55,863 nt of DNA from positions 1 through 55,863 of the IMG/VR virus record IMGVR_UViG_3300048850_000049, one strand, 5' to 3'. This DNA comes from a virus (taxonomy: Duplodnaviria > Heunggongvirae > Uroviricota > Caudoviricetes). Position numbers and translations under genes: made by a program. Below the pieces are notes generated by a model that worked only from the letters and a program-made list of their open reading frames with translations, made no database searches and had not been told where the DNA came from. Of this stretch, positions 5,110 to 12,752 are shown one piece after another (positions within the stretch are counted from its first letter, which is position 1; each line of letters starts with the position of its first letter).

Positions 5110-5454
5110 ATGAACGATCAAACCTGGAAAGATGTGGAGATTGAGCACCTGGCCGTGCAGACCACGACCCTCGGGCGTATGCGCGTGTGCCAGACCGTGC
5201 GCGACCTTGCAGAGCAACTCCTCTACGACTGGCCGGACGAACCTGGTGAAAAGCACCTTAAGGCGCGTGAAGCCTGTATAGCCGCGCTCGAGGGCAAACT
5301 CTCGCCTGGCGTCTGCAGAATTGCCTTCCTGGAAGCGGCACAGGAGGACGGCGTGTGGACCATGGCGCCTAATCGACCTGAGCACGTCCCCGGCTACACA
5401 CCGCCTAGATGGAGCAACAAGCGCACAAGTCCATGGCGCCGCGGTAAACGATAG
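5110..5454 (+). CDS. DUF982-family protein
   Basis: V..TVRDLAEQLLYDWP...GEKHLKAREACIAALEG....AFLEAAQE typical of this rhizobial family. Confidence 0.75.
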   Translation: MNDQTWKDVEIEHLAVQTTTLGRMRVCQTVRDLAEQLLYDWPDEPGEKHLKAREACIAALEGKLSPGVCRIAFLEAAQEDGVWTMAPNRPEHVPGYTPPRWSNKRTSPWRRGKR

Positions 5455-5497: not shown

Positions 5498-5500
5498 TCC

Positions 5501-5749
5501 ATGGTGAGACCAAAACACATGAGTCAGGTTCCGGACAACCGGAGATTCTCGGATCTGAGAGGCTTTGAGGATCTATACGGCTATTGCAGCGTCTGCGGCA
5601 GGAAGAGCCAGCTCAACAAATACGCCCTAGGGAAGCAATACGGCACCGAGACCTACATCAACAGCCTCAAGGGCAAGCTTCGCTGTGCAAGCGCCCAATG
5701 CGGCAACGTGAATGGCAATGTATTCGGAACGGTCAACCAGGGTCGTTAG
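5501..5749 (+). CDS. SOS-regulated small Cys-rich (Zn-binding) protein; candidate antirepressor or inducer
   Basis: CSVC...CASAQC; LexA box immediately upstream. Confidence 0.6.
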   Translation: MVRPKHMSQVPDNRRFSDLRGFEDLYGYCSVCGRKSQLNKYALGKQYGTETYINSLKGKLRCASAQCGNVNGNVFGTVNQGR

Positions 5750-6071
5750 GACAGAATGCCTGAAAGAGGGATTCTGTAACGAGGAAGGCCGCTCCGTATC
5801 CTCGCATTTCCGGATGAGCGGCAAGATGATTCTTCACCACGTCCACGATCTGTTGACCTTGAACTTTGTTCTTGATGCAGTATGGCCGACCGGTTCCAAG
5901 CCTCTGGTTCTCCAGCAAATCATAAACGCCAAAGATATAACCGCGACAGAGACCGTCAGCGACCTCGTTATTCAGAGTGCAAGCCTTGTGAAGCGTATTT
6001 CCGTCATAGAGATCCGCACGCGCCGGAATACTCGCTGCAACCATGGCAGCAATCAGTAGAAGACGCCTCAT
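5733..6071 (-). CDS. Rap1a/Tai-family immunity protein (exported)
   Basis: Signal peptide; GNTLHKAC...CRGYIFGVYD...YC...QQIVDVVKNHLAAHPE...AAFLVTESLFQAFCP. Confidence 0.75.
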   Translation of the reverse strand: MRRLLLIAAMVAASIPARADLYDGNTLHKACTLNNEVADGLCRGYIFGVYDLLENQRLGTGRPYCIKNKVQGQQIVDVVKNHLAAHPEMRGYGAAFLVTESLFQAFCPNDPG

Positions 6072-6129
6072 TCCCCACCCCCTGTTATAAGCGCATGTGT
6101 CATTCGATCCGCAGCGCTGTCAACTCAGA

Positions 6130-6363
6130 CTAGAACCGAGCCTTCCTGAATACGCGCCTAGGTGGCTCTGGTAGATCCTTAGGGTCGACGTCCACAAATC
6201 TCGACGCCTTGTAAGGCTTGCGAATACCCCTATTGGCACGGATCGTAATCTCGCCATTGAAGCGCCGCAGCACCAGGTAGAGCTTACCTTCAGTGAGATA
6301 GTCCGAGCCCGTGGCATCGATGCACCGGACATATTCAGGCCGATCGGGATAATAGACACCCAT
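6130..6363 (-). CDS. Hypothetical small SH3-like protein
   Basis: VRCIDATGSDYLTEGKLYLV motif; coupled to the upstream ORF. Confidence 0.6.
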   Translation of the reverse strand: MGVYYPDRPEYVRCIDATGSDYLTEGKLYLVLRRFNGEITIRANRGIRKPYKASRFVDVDPKDLPEPPRRVFRKARF

Positions 6364-6587
6364 TAAGGTTCAAGGTCCAAGGCTTGCTGAGAGATGGCAG
6401 CGGCGAGATTGCGGATACCCCGCCTTACCTCTTCCTCCGCCCAGCCTACAGCAACAGCCTCATCATGCAGGGCGACAAAGCCTGTCCGGTTTTCGATCGC
6501 CTCAAGAAAGTCCTGCTCCATCGCTTCCTCACAAGCAAGCTCCCGGTCCGGATGACCTTCAGGCAATTTAGGCGGCAATACAGCCAT
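6363..6587 (-). CDS. Conserved rhizobial-type hypothetical protein
   Basis: GGAG RBS; HPDRELACEEA...AVGWAEEEV..GIRNLA. Confidence 0.65.
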   Translation of the reverse strand: MAVLPPKLPEGHPDRELACEEAMEQDFLEAIENRTGFVALHDEAVAVGWAEEEVRRGIRNLAAAISQQALDLEP

Positions 6588-7582
6588 GACAGATCTCCAA
6601 ACCTTTACATCAAACCTGCCCAACCTTTACATCCGGCAAGCTTAGGCCACTCGAGGCCGCCTAAACAGCTATTTCAGGACCGGCCGATGTAAACGTTGCG
6701 ACCTGCAAAAAGCTCCAAAAACCTGACCAACGTTTACACTACCTTTCCACTATCTTGACGAGAACACCCGTTTTCAGCTTTTTTCGATTTTAGGCAAGGC
6801 AAACAGACACAAGAACCTCAATCATCAAAAGACTCATAGAAGCTCATAGAGAGCGACCAGCGTAGTGAGACGAGCACCGAAGCGTCTACGACAACCCTCG
6901 CAGTCACAGACGAACGTCGTAAGAACCCGATACGCCAGACACAGCAAGGGTTGAATACATATTCGACAGAGAGACCGATTGAAGCCCGACTAGTCGGTAG
7001 CCTAGAGAACATAGAGAACCAACAGAGAGAGAACACCCCAAGAACGAACCATGACGCAAGAGAGGAGCCCTTGAGAGAGTATGCCAGGGAGAGATATGAG
7101 TGGAGGGGAGAGATTGAGGGAATAGTTTGTGAGGAGGTATGCGGCCGCGCCTCGGTTCTCCAACGCCTTCCAACCAAGCCCACGACCTCCCGTGCCGATC
7201 CGCGGATAACCATGGCACCAACTGCCCTCGCCTGCCCTGATTGTCATCCAAGATGACCTGCGTTAGACAGAATCAACGAGATAGAGCGATGTCACCCGGA
7301 TCGTTCTCAAAGCGGAGCGCGCAAGCGTCCCTCTTTCTTCGTAGTTGCTGATCTTGCCGTCGGGTGCGAGCGAGACACCTTAAAGGCGCGTTGGTCTAAT
7401 CGGCTGACGCGCCTCTTTTCATGTCGGGGAATGGGTAGCTTTCCATATACCGGAGATCAGGATTCTCGACCTTATGGATCGCCGCGCCTTCCGATCTGCC
7501 GGACCTTTTCCTATGGCTGACAGAGGAGGTTCGCCCTACGTTATTTATTACCTAACGTATATTAAGGTTTAAGAAGGTAAGT

Positions 7583-7640
7583 AATAGACGATAGATGGAC
7601 GGGAACGGATAGCTCTCCGGCGCAACGGTTCGCGTCCGCA
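7583..7640 (+). repeat. ~58-bp dispersed repeat shared with 20664-20719
   Basis: AATAGACGATAGATGGACGGGAA...TCCGGCGCA.CG(G)TTCGCGTCCGCA. Confidence 0.8.
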
Positions 7641-7782
7641 TGACCCAAGGCACTCCACGGAGACCCGTGGCTGCAATAGACCTTCCCCGCTTCCGGCAAA
7701 CAACGCCCATGTATAGGACATAGGGCCGTGGCTCCCTGCCGTGATTACCCTATGCCGCCCCGTCCCTCACCACTACTACCCC

Positions 7783-7852
7783 TAGAATTCGCTTGCTATT
7801 GTCTAAACATCGAAAGCGCAGTGACTTTCGAACAACAAAAGCAACACTTTTA
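7783..7852 (+). promoter_or_regulatory. Early-type promoter and leader of 7864..8838
   Basis: TATTGT -10, then GTCTAAACATCGAAA (7801-7815), identical to the minus-strand 10910-10896; 70 bp without GG/CC. Confidence 0.6.
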
Positions 7853-7863
7853 GGAGAAAGACC

Positions 7864-8838
7864 ATGACCAAGAATTCCAAGAAGAACGCCGCAATCGTCG
7901 CCCCAACAACTGTTGATACACTGCCGGATATGACTTCCTTCTTCAATCAGGCTGCCGAAGCCGTCGTCGAGATGGGTGCTGAAGCCCAGGCACTCGCCGA
8001 GATCGAGGCCCAGGAGGCTCACGACGCCGCTCTCAAGCAGGCTGAGGCCAATGCCCTTGCGGCCGCTGAGAAGGATCGTCCGCTGGAGACCTTCGAAGGC
8101 GAGACCGGTTACTGGACGCAGACGGACGAAGGCCCGGTCTGGACCAAGGTCGAGGCTACTGTCGAAGAGGCCAGCGAAGATCCGGCCGACCTGCCTGTCA
8201 TCGACCATGTGCCCGGCGACCTGAAGGTGATGAAGAACAACTTCACCCTCGAGCAGAAGGAAGAGAAGAAGGGCGAGATCGTGTCCGAGTTCGCCAACCG
8301 CAAGGCGTATGAAGCCTCGCTGCCGGGTCTGTCCTCGAAGATGCTGCCCAATCTCGAAGCCGAGGAGAAGAAGATGGCGACGATCGGCGCTGCAGGTCTG
8401 TTCCTGGCGATGGATGTCGATCCGAACTTCATCAACCGCGAGGTGTCGACCGGTTCACGCTTCAACGTCTACGCCTTCCAGAAGGTCAACGACCTGATCG
8501 TTGCACTCGACGGCGGGTTCATGCAGAACGCCATCAACCGGGCGATCGTGACCTCGCTCTTCAACTTCCGGGACGCAGGCATTCCCTTCACCGGCGTTGC
8601 AGCACTCGCAGCCGCATCCGACAAGGTGAAGGCTGACCGGGCGATCACCAAGCACCTGGTTCGTCACACGGTCTCGGCGAATACGGCGTCTACCCAGAAG
8701 TCCTCGACGATGGTCGCTCTGAAGGCGCTCGGTGTCATCACCAACTCCGGCACGCGTGGTCACGAGGTCTGGACCTTGACCGATACGCCTGCAACGCGCC
8801 GGCTCGAAGAGGTCGTCCGGGGCAAGATTGCAGCCTAA
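7864..8838 (+). CDS. Early protein with an acidic Ala-rich N-terminus and a conserved C-terminal domain (possible wHTH); paralog of 10212..10820
   Basis: AGGAG RBS; strong codon bias; shared motifs listed in findings; ends KIAA. Confidence 0.85.
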   Translation: MTKNSKKNAAIVAPTTVDTLPDMTSFFNQAAEAVVEMGAEAQALAEIEAQEAHDAALKQAEANALAAAEKDRPLETFEGETGYWTQTDEGPVWTKVEATVEEASEDPADLPVIDHVPGDLKVMKNNFTLEQKEEKKGEIVSEFANRKAYEASLPGLSSKMLPNLEAEEKKMATIGAAGLFLAMDVDPNFINREVSTGSRFNVYAFQKVNDLIVALDGGFMQNAINRAIVTSLFNFRDAGIPFTGVAALAAASDKVKADRAITKHLVRHTVSANTASTQKSSTMVALKALGVITNSGTRGHEVWTLTDTPATRRLEEVVRGKIAA

Positions 8839-8860
8839 CAACTGATCTGAGGGGAAGATG

Positions 8861-8890
8861 GGGCAGGCTTGCGAGCTTGCCCTTTCTTTT
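8861..8890 (+). terminator. Rho-independent terminator
   Basis: GGGCAGGCT-tgcg-AGCTTGCCC-TTTCTTTT. Confidence 0.75.
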
Positions 8891-8909
8891 GGACCTGGCT
8901 CAAGGGGAC

Positions 8910-8947
8910 GGGGAACGGCTTAGGATCAAGGGATCCGCGGTCAGGAA
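8910..8947 (+). repeat. 38-bp G-rich repeat, copy 1
   Basis: 34/38 identical to 9755-9792. Confidence 0.8.
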
Positions 8948-9107
8948 CGGGCACGGCCTCATCCGAGGCCCTTCCCCTTCTAGGCCAGGCCCTTCCGGCC
9001 CGCGGCCCTCCTCGGCCAACCGTGGCACACCAGCCAACACCACTATTAACCCGTGAGTGCCATTTGCGATGATTAGTCTCGACAACAGCACAAACGGAGC
9101 AAAGACC

Positions 9108-9251
9108 ATGAAAGACATTTTCAAGAACGACCGGATCCTCTCCCTCATCGACCTGGCCGAAGATATGCTCGGCCTGTTGGCCCTCGTGCTCTTCGTCATC
9201 GCCGTTGCAGCCGTCGGTGCCGCATTCACACCTGAAGCTTTACCTGTATAA
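9108..9251 (+). CDS. Small single-TM protein
   Basis: GGAG RBS; MLGLLALVLFVIAVAAVGAAF. Confidence 0.6.
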   Translation: MKDIFKNDRILSLIDLAEDMLGLLALVLFVIAVAAVGAAFTPEALPV

Positions 9252-9256
9252 GCCTG

Positions 9257-9288
9257 TAGCTAAATAGCTATTTAGCTAATAATCTAAC
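9257..9288. repeat. 8-bp tandem array (parS-like)
   Basis: tagctaaa tagctatt tagctaat aatctaac. Confidence 0.55.
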
Positions 9289-9326
9289 AATGTAAACAGC
9301 AACTTAGCTAGAAACGGAGACTACAA

Positions 9327-9659
9327 ATGTCCTACACGACCGAGATCTTCACGAGCCGTGCAATCAAAGACGCCGCAAACGCCCTCGACGTGCTTCAGGC
9401 TGCACAACAGCACAAACTGCCCGCTGACGCCAAGAAGCACGCCCTGCTCGCCGTCGTCATGAAGGAAGCTGCCGATCGGTTTCAGAAGCTCGCCTCGCAG
9501 CAGTCGTCGCTGTCGCCTGACGAATTCTTCCGTGCAGCCTTCGAGCGTGTGCGTGCAACGCGGGCAGAACAGGCGCTCATCGCCAAGTCGCGCCGTGAAA
9601 AGCGCGAGCGTGACACCGCTGCGCGTGAAATGTTCCTCGCTGATCTCGCCGCAGCGTAA
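9327..9659 (+). CDS. Hypothetical helical early protein
   Basis: GGAG RBS; biased codons; ends DLAAA. Confidence 0.8.
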   Translation: MSYTTEIFTSRAIKDAANALDVLQAAQQHKLPADAKKHALLAVVMKEAADRFQKLASQQSSLSPDEFFRAAFERVRATRAEQALIAKSRREKRERDTAAREMFLADLAAA

Positions 9660-9687
9660 GGCACTCAAGGGCTCATAGCCTAGCGAT

Positions 9688-9720
9688 AGCCGCTACTCAG
9701 CAAGGGTAGCGGCTGTTTGT
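9688..9720 (+). terminator. Rho-independent terminator
   Basis: AGCCGCTAC-tcagcaagg-GTAGCGGCT-GTTTGT. Confidence 0.6.
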
Positions 9721-9754
9721 GGGCTCACTGGGAGGGCACGGACCATGCGGTTTA

Positions 9755-9792
9755 GGGGAACGGCTTAGGGTCAAGGGACTCACGGTCAGGAA
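9755..9792 (+). repeat. 38-bp G-rich repeat, copy 2
   Basis: GGGGAACGGCTTAGGGTCAAGGGACTCACGGTCAGGAA. Confidence 0.8.
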
Positions 9793-9969
9793 AAATCCCT
9801 TAGGGGTCGGGCTCCGCCGAGCGCCCTTCCGGGCAATCGGCTAAAGGGCTGCCCCTCGCCTGGGCTAACCGCGGGGTTCCTTGGCGTGCCGCGGTCAAGC
9901 CTGGTCCGGAGGAATGGGGAAAGGGGTCGTGAGGAACGGGTAGGTAGGGCCTATAGGGGTGTGCGCCTG

Positions 9970-9994
9970 CCCCTACCCCTGCCCCGCGCGCCCC
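9970..9994 (-). other. Four-tract G-quadruplex motif
   Basis: Minus strand reads GGGG-CGCGC-GGGG-CA-GGGG-TA-GGGG. Confidence 0.55.
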
Positions 9995-10164
9995 GCGTCA
10001 TGCGCTTGCGCAGTCTCGATAGTGCTTCGGATATATGCTCATTCGCTCATAGAGCGTCACAGACGCGTTTTCACGTCATTTGCGAGTATCGCGTGCTCAT
10101 CGCTCTATACGCTTGCCAGCGACTCTTAAAATCGATTGTCTCAAATAGCATTCTGACAAACAGC

Positions 10165-10189
10165 AAAAAGCGCTCATATAGAGCGCTTT
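10165..10189 (-). terminator. Terminator of 10212..10820; its stem contains no GG or CC
   Basis: Minus strand AAAGCGCTC-tatat-GAGCGCTTT-TTG. Confidence 0.7.
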
Positions 10190-10211
10190 CTGTTTTCGGT
10201 GTTTGCAGTGA

Positions 10212-10820
10212 TTATGCTGCAATCTCGCTTTCTTCGCTTTCGCTTTCTTCATCGCTTTCAACTTCGATCATCTCGCAATCGATTGCGAAAGCAGCGCACA
10301 ACGCTTGCGCAAGCGATGTTAGCGTGACGTTGTAAGCGTTCTTGATGTCATGACGTGCATTGATGATATTGAGCGTTACAAGCGCGTCACGTGACGTTTG
10401 CGACTGTGCTGCAATCGTTTCAGCTGTTTGAATGATGTTGCGCTGAAAAACTACATGCTTGACGCTTTCGTCTACTTTCGTGTCACGCGAGATTGACGCT
10501 TCGATCATCGCTTGCGTCAACACTACGTCATGACGATAGCAATTGATTGCAGTTCTGAAAATCGCATATGTGTTTTCGTTCAAGTCTTTCGCGTTGAGCG
10601 CTACTGCTTGCGAAGCAAACTTGACTACTTTCTCACATGCATACATTGCACGTGTAAAGCGAGATGCGTCGACGCTTGCGTCACTTAGCAATGCTGCAAG
10701 CTTATCGTTCGCAAGCATAGTGCGAAGCTTTAGCATCTTCTTTTCATTAGATGCACTGCAATCGTTCTTCTTAGCTTCATCAAGACGTGCAGTCATTGCA
10801 GTGAAATAAACATTAGACAT
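10212..10820 (-). CDS. GG/CC-free gene; 202-aa protein without Gly, Pro or Trp; paralog of 7864..8838
   Basis: Has its own promoter, RBS (AGAAGAAAGAG) and terminator; motif homology to 7864..8838; ends EIAA. Confidence 0.85.
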   Translation of the reverse strand: MSNVYFTAMTARLDEAKKNDCSASNEKKMLKLRTMLANDKLAALLSDASVDASRFTRAMYACEKVVKFASQAVALNAKDLNENTYAIFRTAINCYRHDVVLTQAMIEASISRDTKVDESVKHVVFQRNIIQTAETIAAQSQTSRDALVTLNIINARHDIKNAYNVTLTSLAQALCAAFAIDCEMIEVESDEESESEESEIAA

Positions 10821-10895
10821 TTTGATATCTCTTTCTTCTAGCGTTAATGAGCGTTGCTTGCTCGACTTCGAAACGACTGCTTTCTGCGTTGTTCG

Positions 10896-10938
10896 TTTCG
10901 ATGTTTAGACTTTAGTGGAAGTCTTAGAACGTGTCGAA
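10896..10938 (-). promoter_or_regulatory. Promoter of the GG/CC-free gene
   Basis: TTCGAC-N18-TAAAGT, then CTAAACATCGAAA as at 7801-7815. Confidence 0.6.
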
Positions 10939-10998
10939 TGATCTGATGGGGATGCCTTCTGTGCGCCGACCACTCCGGTCAACCTAACCTCCCATGCC

Positions 10999-11038
10999 TA
11001 GCCAAGTAGCCACTTAGACATCTAGCCAGGTATCCATT
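10999..11038. repeat. 8-bp tandem array (parS-like)
   Basis: tagccaag tagccact tagacatc tagccagg tatccatt. Confidence 0.6.
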
Positions 11039-11099
11039 TCCGGTAAGTGCCCTCCCCTACCCCGACCAGCGTTGACGCTTGATCCTATCCTCCCATGGA

Positions 11100-11131
11100 T
11101 AGCTCTTTAGCCATTTAGATGCCTAGCTGAA
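11100..11131. repeat. 8-bp tandem array (parS-like)
   Basis: tagctctt tagccatt tagatgcc tagctgaa. Confidence 0.55.
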
Positions 11132-11133
11132 CA

Positions 11134-11151
11134 TAAGTAAGCATTTACTTA
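11134..11151. promoter_or_regulatory. 18-bp palindromic operator upstream of the tRNA operon
   Basis: TAAGTAA-gcat-TTACTTA. Confidence 0.85.
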
Positions 11152-11179
11152 TTTCCCTGAGGATGGTAGGAAGGAAATA

Positions 11180-11255
11180 CGCGAGATAGCTCAGATGGTA
11201 GAGCGGCGGGCTCATAACCCGCATGTCGTTGGTTCAAGTCCAGCTCTCGCCACCA
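11180..11255 (+). tRNA. tRNA-Met(CAU), initiator-type, encoded CCA
   Basis: 76-nt cloverleaf; C1xC72 mismatch, G2:C71, C3:G70, A73; GGG:CCC in the anticodon stem; TTCAA T-loop. Confidence 0.93.
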
Positions 11256-11278
11256 ATTGAAGCAGGACCGGAGTTTTC

Positions 11279-11713
11279 ATGTCCCATAACCCCTACAAGG
11301 CTCTCGTCTGCAAGGGTTCCCTTGCCCTCAACAGTGGCTGCGGACGCTGCGAGCGCTGCAAGGAAGAGCAGGCAGAGCTTGCCGAGAAGTCCGATGTTCA
11401 CCAGATTTCCGCGCTGAGCGCCAACATGGGCTCGATTGCCGTCGGTCAGCAGGATCTGTTCGACAAGGTTTCTCACCTTGGCCTGCCTGTCGCCGGCTAC
11501 AAGAAGGTTCAGCCGCCTCACCTGGTTGCCCTGGTCAACGAGAACAAGGTTCTGGAAGAGAAGATCCTTCGCCAGATCGATAAGCATGTCACCTTCGGCC
11601 CGGAGCTTGACCAGCGTGCCGTCGCCCTTGCCCGAACCGCGATTCAGGAAGCCTTCATGTGGCTCAACCGCGGCGTATTCCAGCCTTCTCGTCTCGATGG
11701 AGACCTCGAATGA
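11279..11713 (+). CDS. Acb2/Tad1-like nucleotide-sponge domain with an N-terminal Cys-rich extension
   Basis: GYKK..LVNENKVLEEKILRQID..DQRAVALARTAIQEAFMWLNRGVFQP; N-terminal CKGS....GCGRCERC. Confidence 0.65.
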   Translation: MSHNPYKALVCKGSLALNSGCGRCERCKEEQAELAEKSDVHQISALSANMGSIAVGQQDLFDKVSHLGLPVAGYKKVQPPHLVALVNENKVLEEKILRQIDKHVTFGPELDQRAVALARTAIQEAFMWLNRGVFQPSRLDGDLE

Positions 11714-12156
11714 GCGTCGTCGTCTATTCCGACGGCGTAATGGTCGCAGATAGCCGTGCTTACTCGGGTTCAACGCATCCTATTGGCAGCAAGATGAAGA
11801 TTCATCGGCTCGATGACGGTTCGCTTCTGGGCGTCACGTCCAACCAGGTCGGTTTGCCGGAAGCCTTCAGGATGTGGATCGAGAATGGAGCCGATCGCGA
11901 AGACATCGTGCCTAATGAGCCTTCCTTCGAGGCGCTCCACGTTCTTAAGGATGGCAGTGTCTACCTCTACGAGGACGGTTACACGCCCTCCGGACCCTTG
12001 GTCGGGCAGCATTTCGCCATCGGTTCGGGCAAGAAGTATGCCTATGGCGCTCTTTTGGCCGGGGTTTCCGTGGTTAAGTCCGTCGAGGTCGCCATTGAGG
12101 CCGATCTCTTCTGCGGCGGGCCGATCTCCAAGCTCTCTCTTTCCGACAATGAATAG
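11710..12156 (+). CDS. Proteasome/HslV-like Ntn-hydrolase
   Basis: (M)SVVVYSDGVMVADSR, KIHRL, FAIGSG. Confidence 0.65.
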   Translation: MSVVVYSDGVMVADSRAYSGSTHPIGSKMKIHRLDDGSLLGVTSNQVGLPEAFRMWIENGADREDIVPNEPSFEALHVLKDGSVYLYEDGYTPSGPLVGQHFAIGSGKKYAYGALLAGVSVVKSVEVAIEADLFCGGPISKLSLSDNE

Positions 12157-12201
12157 CTATCCAGCCACTTAGCCATTTAGACACATAGCCAGAAAGCCAG
12201 A
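12154..12201. repeat. 8-bp tandem array, 6 units (parS-like)
   Basis: tagctatc cagccact tagccatt tagacaca tagccaga aagccaga. Confidence 0.65.
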
Positions 12202-12205
12202 TAAA

Positions 12206-12424
12206 ATGACCTATAGCTTCAAGCACCGCCTCTACGAGACTCTCCATCTTTCGATCGTCTTTATCGCGGTCGCCGTGGTTATCATGTTCGGAGCGGTAAT
12301 CATCCCGCTTGCCATGCTTGTGTTCTTCGGCTCGATCTTCGTGCTCTGGGCGGTTCTCAACTCGGTCTACTGGATCAAGCGCTTCATTGCCATCTTCCGG
12401 CGCTACTGGCGCGAATTCTTCTAA
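12206..12424 (+). CDS. Small membrane protein
   Basis: Long hydrophobic hairpin with a basic C-terminus. Confidence 0.65.
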   Translation: MTYSFKHRLYETLHLSIVFIAVAVVIMFGAVIIPLAMLVFFGSIFVLWAVLNSVYWIKRFIAIFRRYWREFF

Positions 12425-12430
12425 ACGACG

Positions 12431-12460
12431 AAGGCCCGGTCAAACCCGGGCCTTTTTCTT
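12431..12460. terminator. Terminator between convergent genes
   Basis: AAGGCCCGG-tcaaac-CCGGGCCTT-TTTCTT. Confidence 0.75.
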
Positions 12461-12499
12461 AGCTCTATGGCTGAATAGCCACATGGATGAATAGCTATT
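12460..12499. repeat. 8-bp tandem array at the 3' end of the par operon (parS-like)
   Basis: tagctcta tggctgaa tagccaca tggatgaa tagctatt. Confidence 0.6.
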
Positions 12500-12752
12500 T
12501 GGCTTTTTGCTCACGTTTCCAGGCTTCGAAGCAGGCGGCCAACAGTTCGTGCATCGAGACCCGGTTGATCGTGGCTGCCATCTTGAATTCGTGGTGCCAG
12601 TCCTGCGGCATGTTGAAGGTCATGCCAATATGGGTCTTGGTCTTCATGTTGTCGGCCGCATCAACCTTTGTCGGGGCCATTGTCTGCGGCAGGAATGTGC
12701 TGCCTTTCTTCGGAGGAGGCGCGACCGAGGCCCGTGTTTTCTGCTCAGTCAT
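12495..12752 (-). CDS. Ribbon-helix-helix centromere-binding protein (type Ib, ParG-like)
   Basis: Flexible N-terminus, then MTFNMPQDWHHEFKMAATINRVSMHELL; directly downstream of parA. Confidence 0.75.
   Translation of the reverse strand: MTEQKTRASVAPPPKKGSTFLPQTMAPTKVDAADNMKTKTHIGMTFNMPQDWHHEFKMAATINRVSMHELLAACFEAWKREQKAK

Follow-up and report, generated by a model that had tools for sequence, protein, structure and literature searches.

Two genes of the virus record IMGVR_UViG_3300048850_000049, here called A and B, form an ancient pair that encodes one protein module twice, once freely and once in DNA containing neither GG nor CC, and this pair, together with a private regulation common to both copies, is kept across a large group of phages and phage-plasmids. 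The window that we analysed is the first 55.9 kb (55,863 nucleotides) of the complete 119,863-bp record, and genome-wide scans used the full record. A first-pass annotation of this DNA had described A and B as convergent paralogues with a normal and a GG/CC-purged member, and had read B as a bootstrap copy working from modified DNA and A as a full-length copy working later. Our analysis confirms the observation and partly supports the interpretation.

The unit of B, from its -10 box to near its terminator, is recoded under lasting selection to zero GG/CC. The tract free of both dinucleotides (Table 1) runs from 3 bp upstream of the -10 box to 14 bp past the stop codon and is the only long one in the genome, where the next-longest GG/CC-free run measures 87 bp; no other dinucleotide class has a comparable free tract anywhere in the whole genome. 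A single GG/CC splits it from a further 82-bp free run that holds the terminator hairpin, just three are found in the 170 bp beyond the tract (10029-10198), and depletion extends about 40-130 bp beyond the predicted terminator. Genome-wide, GG/CC is mildly low (observed/expected ~0.8), and gene A has a normal content (0.82). Within B, the GC and CG steps are enriched (observed/expected 1.94 and 1.65), and the ribosome-binding site of B genes is purine-rich and GG-less (GAAAGAGA). Since its unit has neither GG nor CC, the B protein contains no glycine, proline or tryptophan. This is not a matter of amino-acid choice alone: when the codon order of B was shuffled (n=2000), codon junctions carried on average 23.5 GG/CC and never fewer than 12, against none observed, and the rule thus acts on the nucleic acid in all frames.

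That A and B are homologous, as remote paralogues with 17-19% identity, is established by profiles and structures rather than by pairwise search, for BLASTP of A against B is unconvincing alone (29% identity over 104 amino acids (aa), E 0.15). Homologue sets of 45 B-type and 56 A-type proteins were collected and aligned for profiles. With hhalign, the full-length A profile matched that of B at E 1e-4, and the C-terminal domain of A at E 3.2e-6 (probability 88%), in an alignment that is colinear for 171 columns and takes in nearly all of B, the N-terminal helical domain included. In the AlphaFold models (B: predicted local distance difference test, pLDDT, 89.8 and predicted template-modelling score, pTM, 0.84; A: pLDDT 86.3) helices and strands follow the same order from residue 129 of A on. 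The best non-self Foldseek match of the B model among 2.3 million clusters of the AlphaFold Database was a 325-aa protein, 70% identical to A, aligned over its residues 134-320 (template-modelling score 0.68, E 3e-6). In the reverse search the A model found at rank 2 an orthologue of B from the same accession series (E 1e-5), and four more distant proteins of ~200 aa come next in both lists; in the ESM Atlas, too, the same unnamed clusters are nearest to both. Moreover, many of the second copies in 27 related viral contigs are intermediates that bridge the two families, with scores of ~100-115 bits against the A profile and ~35-56 against that of B. It is very improbable that A and B are unrelated proteins which have in common a winged-helix arrangement and some motif matches by chance. 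Such a view could draw on the BLASTP value, on single-profile HMMER searches of this genome, where each family's hidden Markov model matched its own gene only and never crossed between A and B, and on the generic nature of winged-helix Z scores of 7-8. It would have to explain away the long colinear alignment, the reciprocal structural matches, intermediates that match both profiles, predicted structures already pointing to superposition over the whole module, and a kept synteny in which the second copy is found downstream of A in every case, at a distance of 0.6-5.8 kb.

In the survey of relatives in IMG/VR, GG/CC was counted in the ~590-bp module of the 27 contigs that carry a second copy. 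None was found in 17 of these second copies, 1-10 in six, about 30 in two and 61-66 in two, against 63-118 in first copies, and the purge is kept in backgrounds from 46 to 67% GC. Free tracts of several second copies are given in Table 1. In three further contigs (L038, L040 and L049) they reach 1.4-1.5 kb and so exceed the second copy, which indicates that several genes are under the rule in some lineages. The phylogeny across related elements, which the first-pass annotation had proposed as a check, speaks for a single old duplication after which the second copy has the longer branches: in a tree of 17 rows one branch splits all A-type modules from all B-type proteins with support 100/100, and in a tree of 55 IMG/VR rows 28 first copies lie on one side of a single branch (Shimodaira-Hasegawa-like approximate likelihood ratio test, SH-aLRT, 98). 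The convergent arrangement holds for the record and for 18 of the 27 contigs, but not as a defining feature, for in the other nine the copies stand in tandem; convergence is thus a feature of the Rhizobium-phage branch and not of the system.

The rule can lapse. The second copy of contig L034 (IMGVR_UViG_3300022749_000077, 2036-2635), nested in a purged clade (support 99), carries 66 GG/CC and represents a relaxation in progress. Only three of these lie at codon positions 1-2, with 30 at positions 2-3 and 33 at codon junctions (63 of 66 outside positions 1-2), the protein has just 3 Gly/Pro/Trp residues, and GC content is 62% versus 50% in the strictly purged sister L036. GG/CC has been regained first at synonymous sites, in a gene whose protein is still nearly free of the three amino acids, which shows that the constraint acts on the nucleic acid and that the amino-acid loss is the legacy of a nucleotide-level rule. 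Together with the purged codon junctions, and with the replacement in B of conserved Gly/Pro residues of the A type, such as the invariant G290 by N151, this bears out the earlier suggestion that a constraint on the nucleic acid overrode protein conservation. The second copy of L026 (IMGVR_UViG_3300046474_000274, 12007-12591) is also relaxed, with 30 GG/CC, and both lineages should be useful for finding what went together with the purge; IMGVR_UViG_3300037566_000044 is a further relaxed element. Where copies are nearly purged, most leaks are CC on the sense strand, within ACC, GCC and TCC codons (58 CC vs 3 GG when L037, with 16 GG and 14 CC, is set aside). Either the ban is stricter for GG on that strand, or ACC, GCC and TCC are the first to be brought back by codon preference.

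Each of the two genes forms a monocistronic unit, and A and B have in common a private design of promoter and 5'-terminal hairpin, which no other gene in the complete genome has. The 15-mer GTCTAAACATCGAAA reported in both leaders is there as an exact match (Table 1). By our own estimate ~1.5 inverted repeats of some 15-mer are expected by chance in 56 kb, so that such a repeat is not rare, and its weight lies in position and conservation: in both units it is placed equally, where it overlaps the -10/start region and supplies the 5' arm of the leader hairpin, and relatives keep an equivalent motif common to the A and B leaders. The leader motif recurs at 119361 and at 113393, within coding DNA and with no promoter context, and these two occurrences were dismissed as chance. 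The B promoter is sigma-70-like (TCGACA-17-TAAAGT); the -35 of A is weaker, and its TATTGT stands at the same distance from the common 15-mer as the -10 of B; the -10 and transcript start of A are predictions from sequence. Putative transcripts of A and B start 1-2 nt before the hairpin in all relatives. The hairpin of A is TCGAAAG-N8-CTTTCGA and that of B has arms of 9 bp and a loop of 16 nt; a GCAAC-rich stretch follows downstream. Between relatives the arms vary on both sides (TCGAAAG/CTTTCGA, TCAGA/TCTGA, TCAAGACG/CGTCTTGA), and these two-sided changes, with a loop length that differs between A and B, favour an RNA 5' stem-loop over a dimer operator. Stabiliser hairpins at 5' termini are known on mRNAs, and the leader hairpin would stabilise the A and B messages in the same way.

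The coding regions of A and B end ~1.4 kb apart, with two genes between them and a terminator-like hairpin for each unit. With separate terminator-like hairpins, this distance and a tandem order in nine contigs, the arrangement differs from the face-to-face switch of the P2/186 type, where convergent transcripts overlap and interfere. The genes between A and B are partly depleted (GG/CC observed/expected 0.11-0.57 vs ~0.8-0.9 elsewhere; 0.45-0.57 for the 110-aa gene in relatives), which fits a cost per GG/CC site. Two spacers, 8850-9050 and 9660-10010, are the opposite of the purged unit, being rich in G-runs and C-runs and reaching 65% GC; both carry a 38-nt direct repeat of 89% identity (GGGGAACGGCTTAGG..., copies at 8910-8947 and 9755-9792) with no match in Rfam.

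In the protein of A, an N-terminal extension that is acidic and variable (~residues 1-125) precedes a basic, conserved module of ~195 aa in which a winged helix comes after a helical domain, and B consists of the ~180-aa module matching the C-terminal domain of A plus an acidic tail (~residues 183-199). Secondary structure assigned by DSSP reads H-H-(insert)-H-E-E-H in both models, a three-helix core followed by a beta-hairpin wing, with B residues 76-180 and the matching part of A forming this portion; VIA-align places it among winged-helix domains (Z 7-8.3, root-mean-square deviation 2.5-3.1 over 73-88 residues). The winged helix-turn-helix-like C-terminus expected by the first-pass annotation is thus present at the level of the fold, and since such Z scores are generic no function follows from them. 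MarR/ArsR-type and other winged-helix proteins (AF1382 2qvo, BigR 3pqk, kleisin and cullin domains) have the same helix-helix-helix-wing topology; A and B have no sequence relation to them, and differ further by an additional helical domain at the N-terminus and by an insert of 20 residues that precedes the third helix. That helix has conserved Thr/Gln/Ser, the two families have different residues at exposed positions of the putative recognition helix, and the isoelectric point is ~9.4 for the A module and 8.6 for the B core. Most likely the module binds nucleic acid. A complex prediction for the C-terminal domain of A with B scored 0.06 (mark 0.32), which speaks neither for nor against an interaction. 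The A family comprises 384 clusters at 50% identity (E <=0.001), including genes of ~210 aa that do without the long N-terminal arm, at least one of which adjoins a ParA gene and has no purged neighbour within 8 kb. In this way a new protein family is defined that has no Pfam coverage and comes with its private promoter and leader.

Both proteins end in -IAA, as had been noted, and a terminal -AA is found in 161 of 202 A-type (80%) and 29 of 45 B-type proteins (64%), often after a non-polar residue. ClpXP degrons of the ssrA kind end in -LAA or -AA, as in the ssrA tag and Caulobacter CtrA, and the free Ala-Ala C-terminus of such degrons is present in both A and B, so far resembling these known cases. 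A and B may therefore be short-lived through a ClpXP-type tag. The ending differs from them in not being specific to the pair: 20 of 159 open reading frames of the genome (13%) end in Ala-Ala, among them ParA-like, helicase-like and recombinase-like genes, where a rough estimate of our own from alanine frequency is ~1-2%.

How such a pair could work may be pictured as follows. One old duplication of a gene for a basic helical plus winged-helix module of ~195 aa would have given rise to A and B; the two would be switched on together, their mRNAs stabilised and their proteins made short-lived by -AA. An activity reading GG/CC on DNA or on the transcript would disable ordinary genes, leaving B expressible, and A, with its added acidic N-terminal arm, would work when that activity is absent. 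We prefer this account, in which B can still be expressed when an activity directed at GG/CC is present and A is the unconstrained copy, although we judge it slightly more likely to fail than to hold. Its more specific form, in which the GG step, excluded most strictly on the sense strand, is read on DNA or nascent RNA by a phage or host activity that silences any gene carrying it, seems possible but doubtful to us. As both GG and CC are absent and the -10 region is covered, a feature of the duplex fits better than a reader at the level of RNA, which is nevertheless conceivable. If the proposal is true, a second copy written in an alphabet of 17 amino acids would keep one early winged-helix regulator expressible beside the normal copy, and the pair would serve as an inbuilt sensor or fail-safe for the activity and offer a way of tracking it down.

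Several points weigh against the account of an expressible B beside an unconstrained A. The DNA binding, ClpXP turnover, transcript starts and expression timing that it invokes for A and B are all predictions, and no usable match to either protein came from Pfam, PHROGs, PDB sequences or Foldseek-PDB. Given its occurrence on 20 of 159 reading frames, the -AA ending is a weak signal for the pair. That both copies are kept at so low an identity suggests distinct rather than redundant roles, and the bias of the leaks towards sense-strand CC suggests that the constraint may be strand-specific and linked to RNA instead of being a symmetric feature of DNA. To our knowledge, no enzyme that reads GG/CC has been described in these phages or their hosts, and none was found by family searches of the complete genome: PF00145, PF01555, PF02086, PF01702, PF01507 and PF00303 have no match in the 119.9 kb, with control genomes positive, so that no C5, N4/N6 or D12-class (Dam-type) methyltransferase, tRNA-guanine transglycosylase (TGT)/DpdA, phosphoadenosine-phosphosulfate (PAPS)-reductase/DndC or ThyA-type family is detectable, a negative that leaves room for a modifying enzyme of a new type.

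These searches bear most directly on the form of the idea closest to the first-pass interpretation, namely that virion DNA is modified, nicked or lesioned at GG/CC and blocks the host RNA polymerase, B being the bootstrap copy and A acting after replication. A tract spanning the -10 box to near the terminator is what blocks to transcription would lead one to expect, and the neighbouring genes in the same early, palindrome-free region are partly depleted too; relatives have fixed ends with terminal repeats (PMC12509600), and the two ligases and WGR protein that they encode would suit a genome in need of end or nick repair, which we take as a lead only. With no modification enzyme family found, however, modified virion DNA is presently a notion without an enzyme behind it, and a candidate modification cluster beside the terminase (16.4-20.6 kb) contains by Pfam only two ParB_N proteins and an ABC-type ATPase. 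Template lesions would moreover predict the strictest exclusion for sense CC, yet it is sense CC that leaks first, and elements of this type also live as plasmids, as the passages on pLM21S1 in PMC4447125 describe. On balance this version is improbable. We give a similarly low probability to an escape from a host weapon that recognises a very short word (a CC/NGG protospacer-adjacent motif (PAM), or a frequent-cutting nickase or nuclease), by which the gene of first contact would be protected. Exclusion on both strands, its per-site character and grading in neighbours, and its relaxation in a few lineages, which would follow if the weapon is missing from some hosts, all suit this idea, for which the first-entering DNA of T5, free of restriction sites, and PAM depletion in phages are precedents. 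But the purge is kept at 46-67% GC in elements of Rhizobium, Sinorhizobium and Ancylobacter, which would need one common weapon, no such host enzyme was identified in this analysis, and shielding one gene cannot save a genome that is cut elsewhere.

Perhaps A and B have different jobs, as regulator and antagonist or with different targets, so that the purge serves the job of B, for instance during a host defence or a phage shut-off acting on GG transcripts, and A is no later replacement. The two families separated long ago and nearly every lineage retains both copies, which differ at exposed positions of the putative recognition helix and in their acidic appendages, an N-terminal arm in A and a C-terminal tail in B. 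That GG is excluded more strictly than CC on the sense strand would also agree with this explanation, and defence that reads a dinucleotide on mRNA exists: in CmdTAC, CmdT ADP-ribosylates adenine in GA dinucleotides of single-stranded mRNA and blocks translation (PMC11618068). The likeness is a dinucleotide read on transcripts, which fits this sense-strand bias; the differences are that CmdT reads GA and not GG, that CC is excluded too, that the B tract contains untranscribed bases and that no CmdT-like gene was linked to these phages in this analysis. Against separate jobs, the same promoter and leader design argues for joint control, 17 of 27 second copies are free of GG and CC alike, for which one reader acting on RNA does not account, and the tract covers the untranscribed -10 region and continues past the predicted terminator. 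We regard this explanation as unlikely, though it has real weight.

Segments cleared of every recognition word so that they stay functional are known from the first-step-transfer DNA of T5, from PAM depletion in phages and from ACA-less mRNAs that resist MazF, and B resembles these cases in that selection clears the word from the segment. It differs from them in that the word is a dinucleotide, whose exclusion on both strands costs the protein three amino acids, and in that the clearing concerns one transcription unit only, next to an unconstrained paralogue and with no reader known. The pair is in effect a natural control experiment, one module being encoded freely and under a GG/CC ban. It demonstrates that, throughout a phage group, a folded protein can lose three amino acids to a rule on the nucleic acid and be kept without them, and the relaxed lineages demonstrate that such a ban is reversible. 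The GG/CC reader becomes testable through cultured Rhizobium phages (B1VFA, V1VFA-S and RHph_X66) and through the contrast between strict and relaxed genomes.

Table 1. Coordinates of the A and B units in the record, and GG/CC-free tracts in second copies of relatives
Feature	Position	Strand	Description
Gene A promoter-proximal element	7797..7831	+	-10-like TATTGT 7797-7802; 15-mer 7801-7815; hairpin 7810-7831
Gene A	7864..8838	+	324-aa open reading frame, ends -IAA
Gene A terminator-like hairpin and T tract	8860..8893	+	hairpin 8860..8883; from pattern scan only
Conserved 110-aa gene between A and B	9327..9659	+	GG/CC observed/expected 0.44; ends -AAA
Gene B terminator-like hairpin	10164..10192	-	stem of GCGC steps, no GG or CC
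GG/CC-free tract	10200..10916	.	719 bp; bounding GG/CC dinucleotides start at 10198 and 10917
Gene B	10212..10820	-	202-aa open reading frame, ends -IAA; 0 Gly, 0 Pro, 0 Trp
Gene B promoter/leader	10868..10937	-	-35 TCGACA 10937-10932; -10 TAAAGT 10914-10909; 15-mer 10910-10896; hairpin 10901-10868
B1VFA second copy			GG/CC-free tract 851 bp
X66 second copy			GG/CC-free tract 432 + 336 bp
L007 second copy			GG/CC-free tract 776 bp; more distant contig
L009 second copy			GG/CC-free tract 755 bp; more distant contig
L011 second copy			GG/CC-free tract 693 bp; Ancylobacter contig, 63% GC
L013 second copy			GG/CC-free tract 1003 + 266 bp
L015 second copy			GG/CC-free tract 903 bp; 46% GC, 104-kb contig

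The record is that of a Rhizobium phage-plasmid, and its relatives are the Rhizobium siphophages B1VFA, V1VFA-S and RHph_X66, with ~72-76% nucleotide identity in the A/B region. These phage-plasmids carry RepC and ParA/ParB, have fixed ends and terminal repeats of 3.6-3.9 kb (3,605 bp in B1VFA), and encode two ATP-dependent ligases and a WGR-domain protein (PMC12509600). The same element family includes the phage-plasmids pLM21S1 and RHEph10 (PMC4447125, PMC5537653), and pLM21S1 is maintained as a plasmid according to the passages on it in PMC4447125. Typical carriers of the A/B module are phages and phage-plasmids of alphaproteobacteria with a size of 110-120 kb, and in the annotated members of the family the orthologues of A and B are hypothetical proteins, such as B1VFA_058 and B1VFA_061. 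The pair, the common leader and the GG/CC-free tract are mentioned neither in the full text of PMC12509600 nor in the pLM21S1 passages of PMC4447125 and PMC5537653, and a literature search on phage genes free of the GG dinucleotide returned nothing relevant.

The palindrome AAGTAA-N4-TTACTT occurs at ~35 sites (<=1 mismatch) between 11135 and 114358 of the whole genome. It is absent from the 16 kb that begin at 114.4 kb, pass over the record junction and end at 11.1 kb, and that contain A, B and many small genes. The pair therefore sits in a region free of this putative operator, beside partition genes, and the first site (11135) lies ~200 bp upstream of the B promoter. A 44-nt direct repeat of 75% identity (10983-11026 and 11084-11127) also lies upstream of that promoter; the palindrome comes after it, and then a tRNA-Met (11180-11255), the only Rfam match over 5500-12000. 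Beyond the B promoter region, 11279-11713 encodes a protein with an Acb2/Tad1-hairpin domain (PF24729, E 2.7e-15), of the anti-CBASS/Thoeris sponge family, and 11659-12156 an HslV-family peptidase, in an order that relatives keep. CCATGG is found at 13 sites genome-wide, where ~36 are expected, with one small cluster at 5360, 5431 and 5499 (spaced 68-71 bp); arrays of this word flanking A are not evident.

Soil metatranscriptome contigs match parts of A (8170-8570) and of B (10205-10638) at 99% identity or above. Such contigs cannot prove transcription, strand or level, and stretches that they leave uncovered carry no meaning, so that the matches are a weak hint of expression. Finally, a 292-nt contig from a soil RNA library matches 7069-7360 at no less than 99% identity, inside a 1.2-kb stretch upstream of A that has no convincing open reading frame; it may represent a small RNA or an unannotated small gene.

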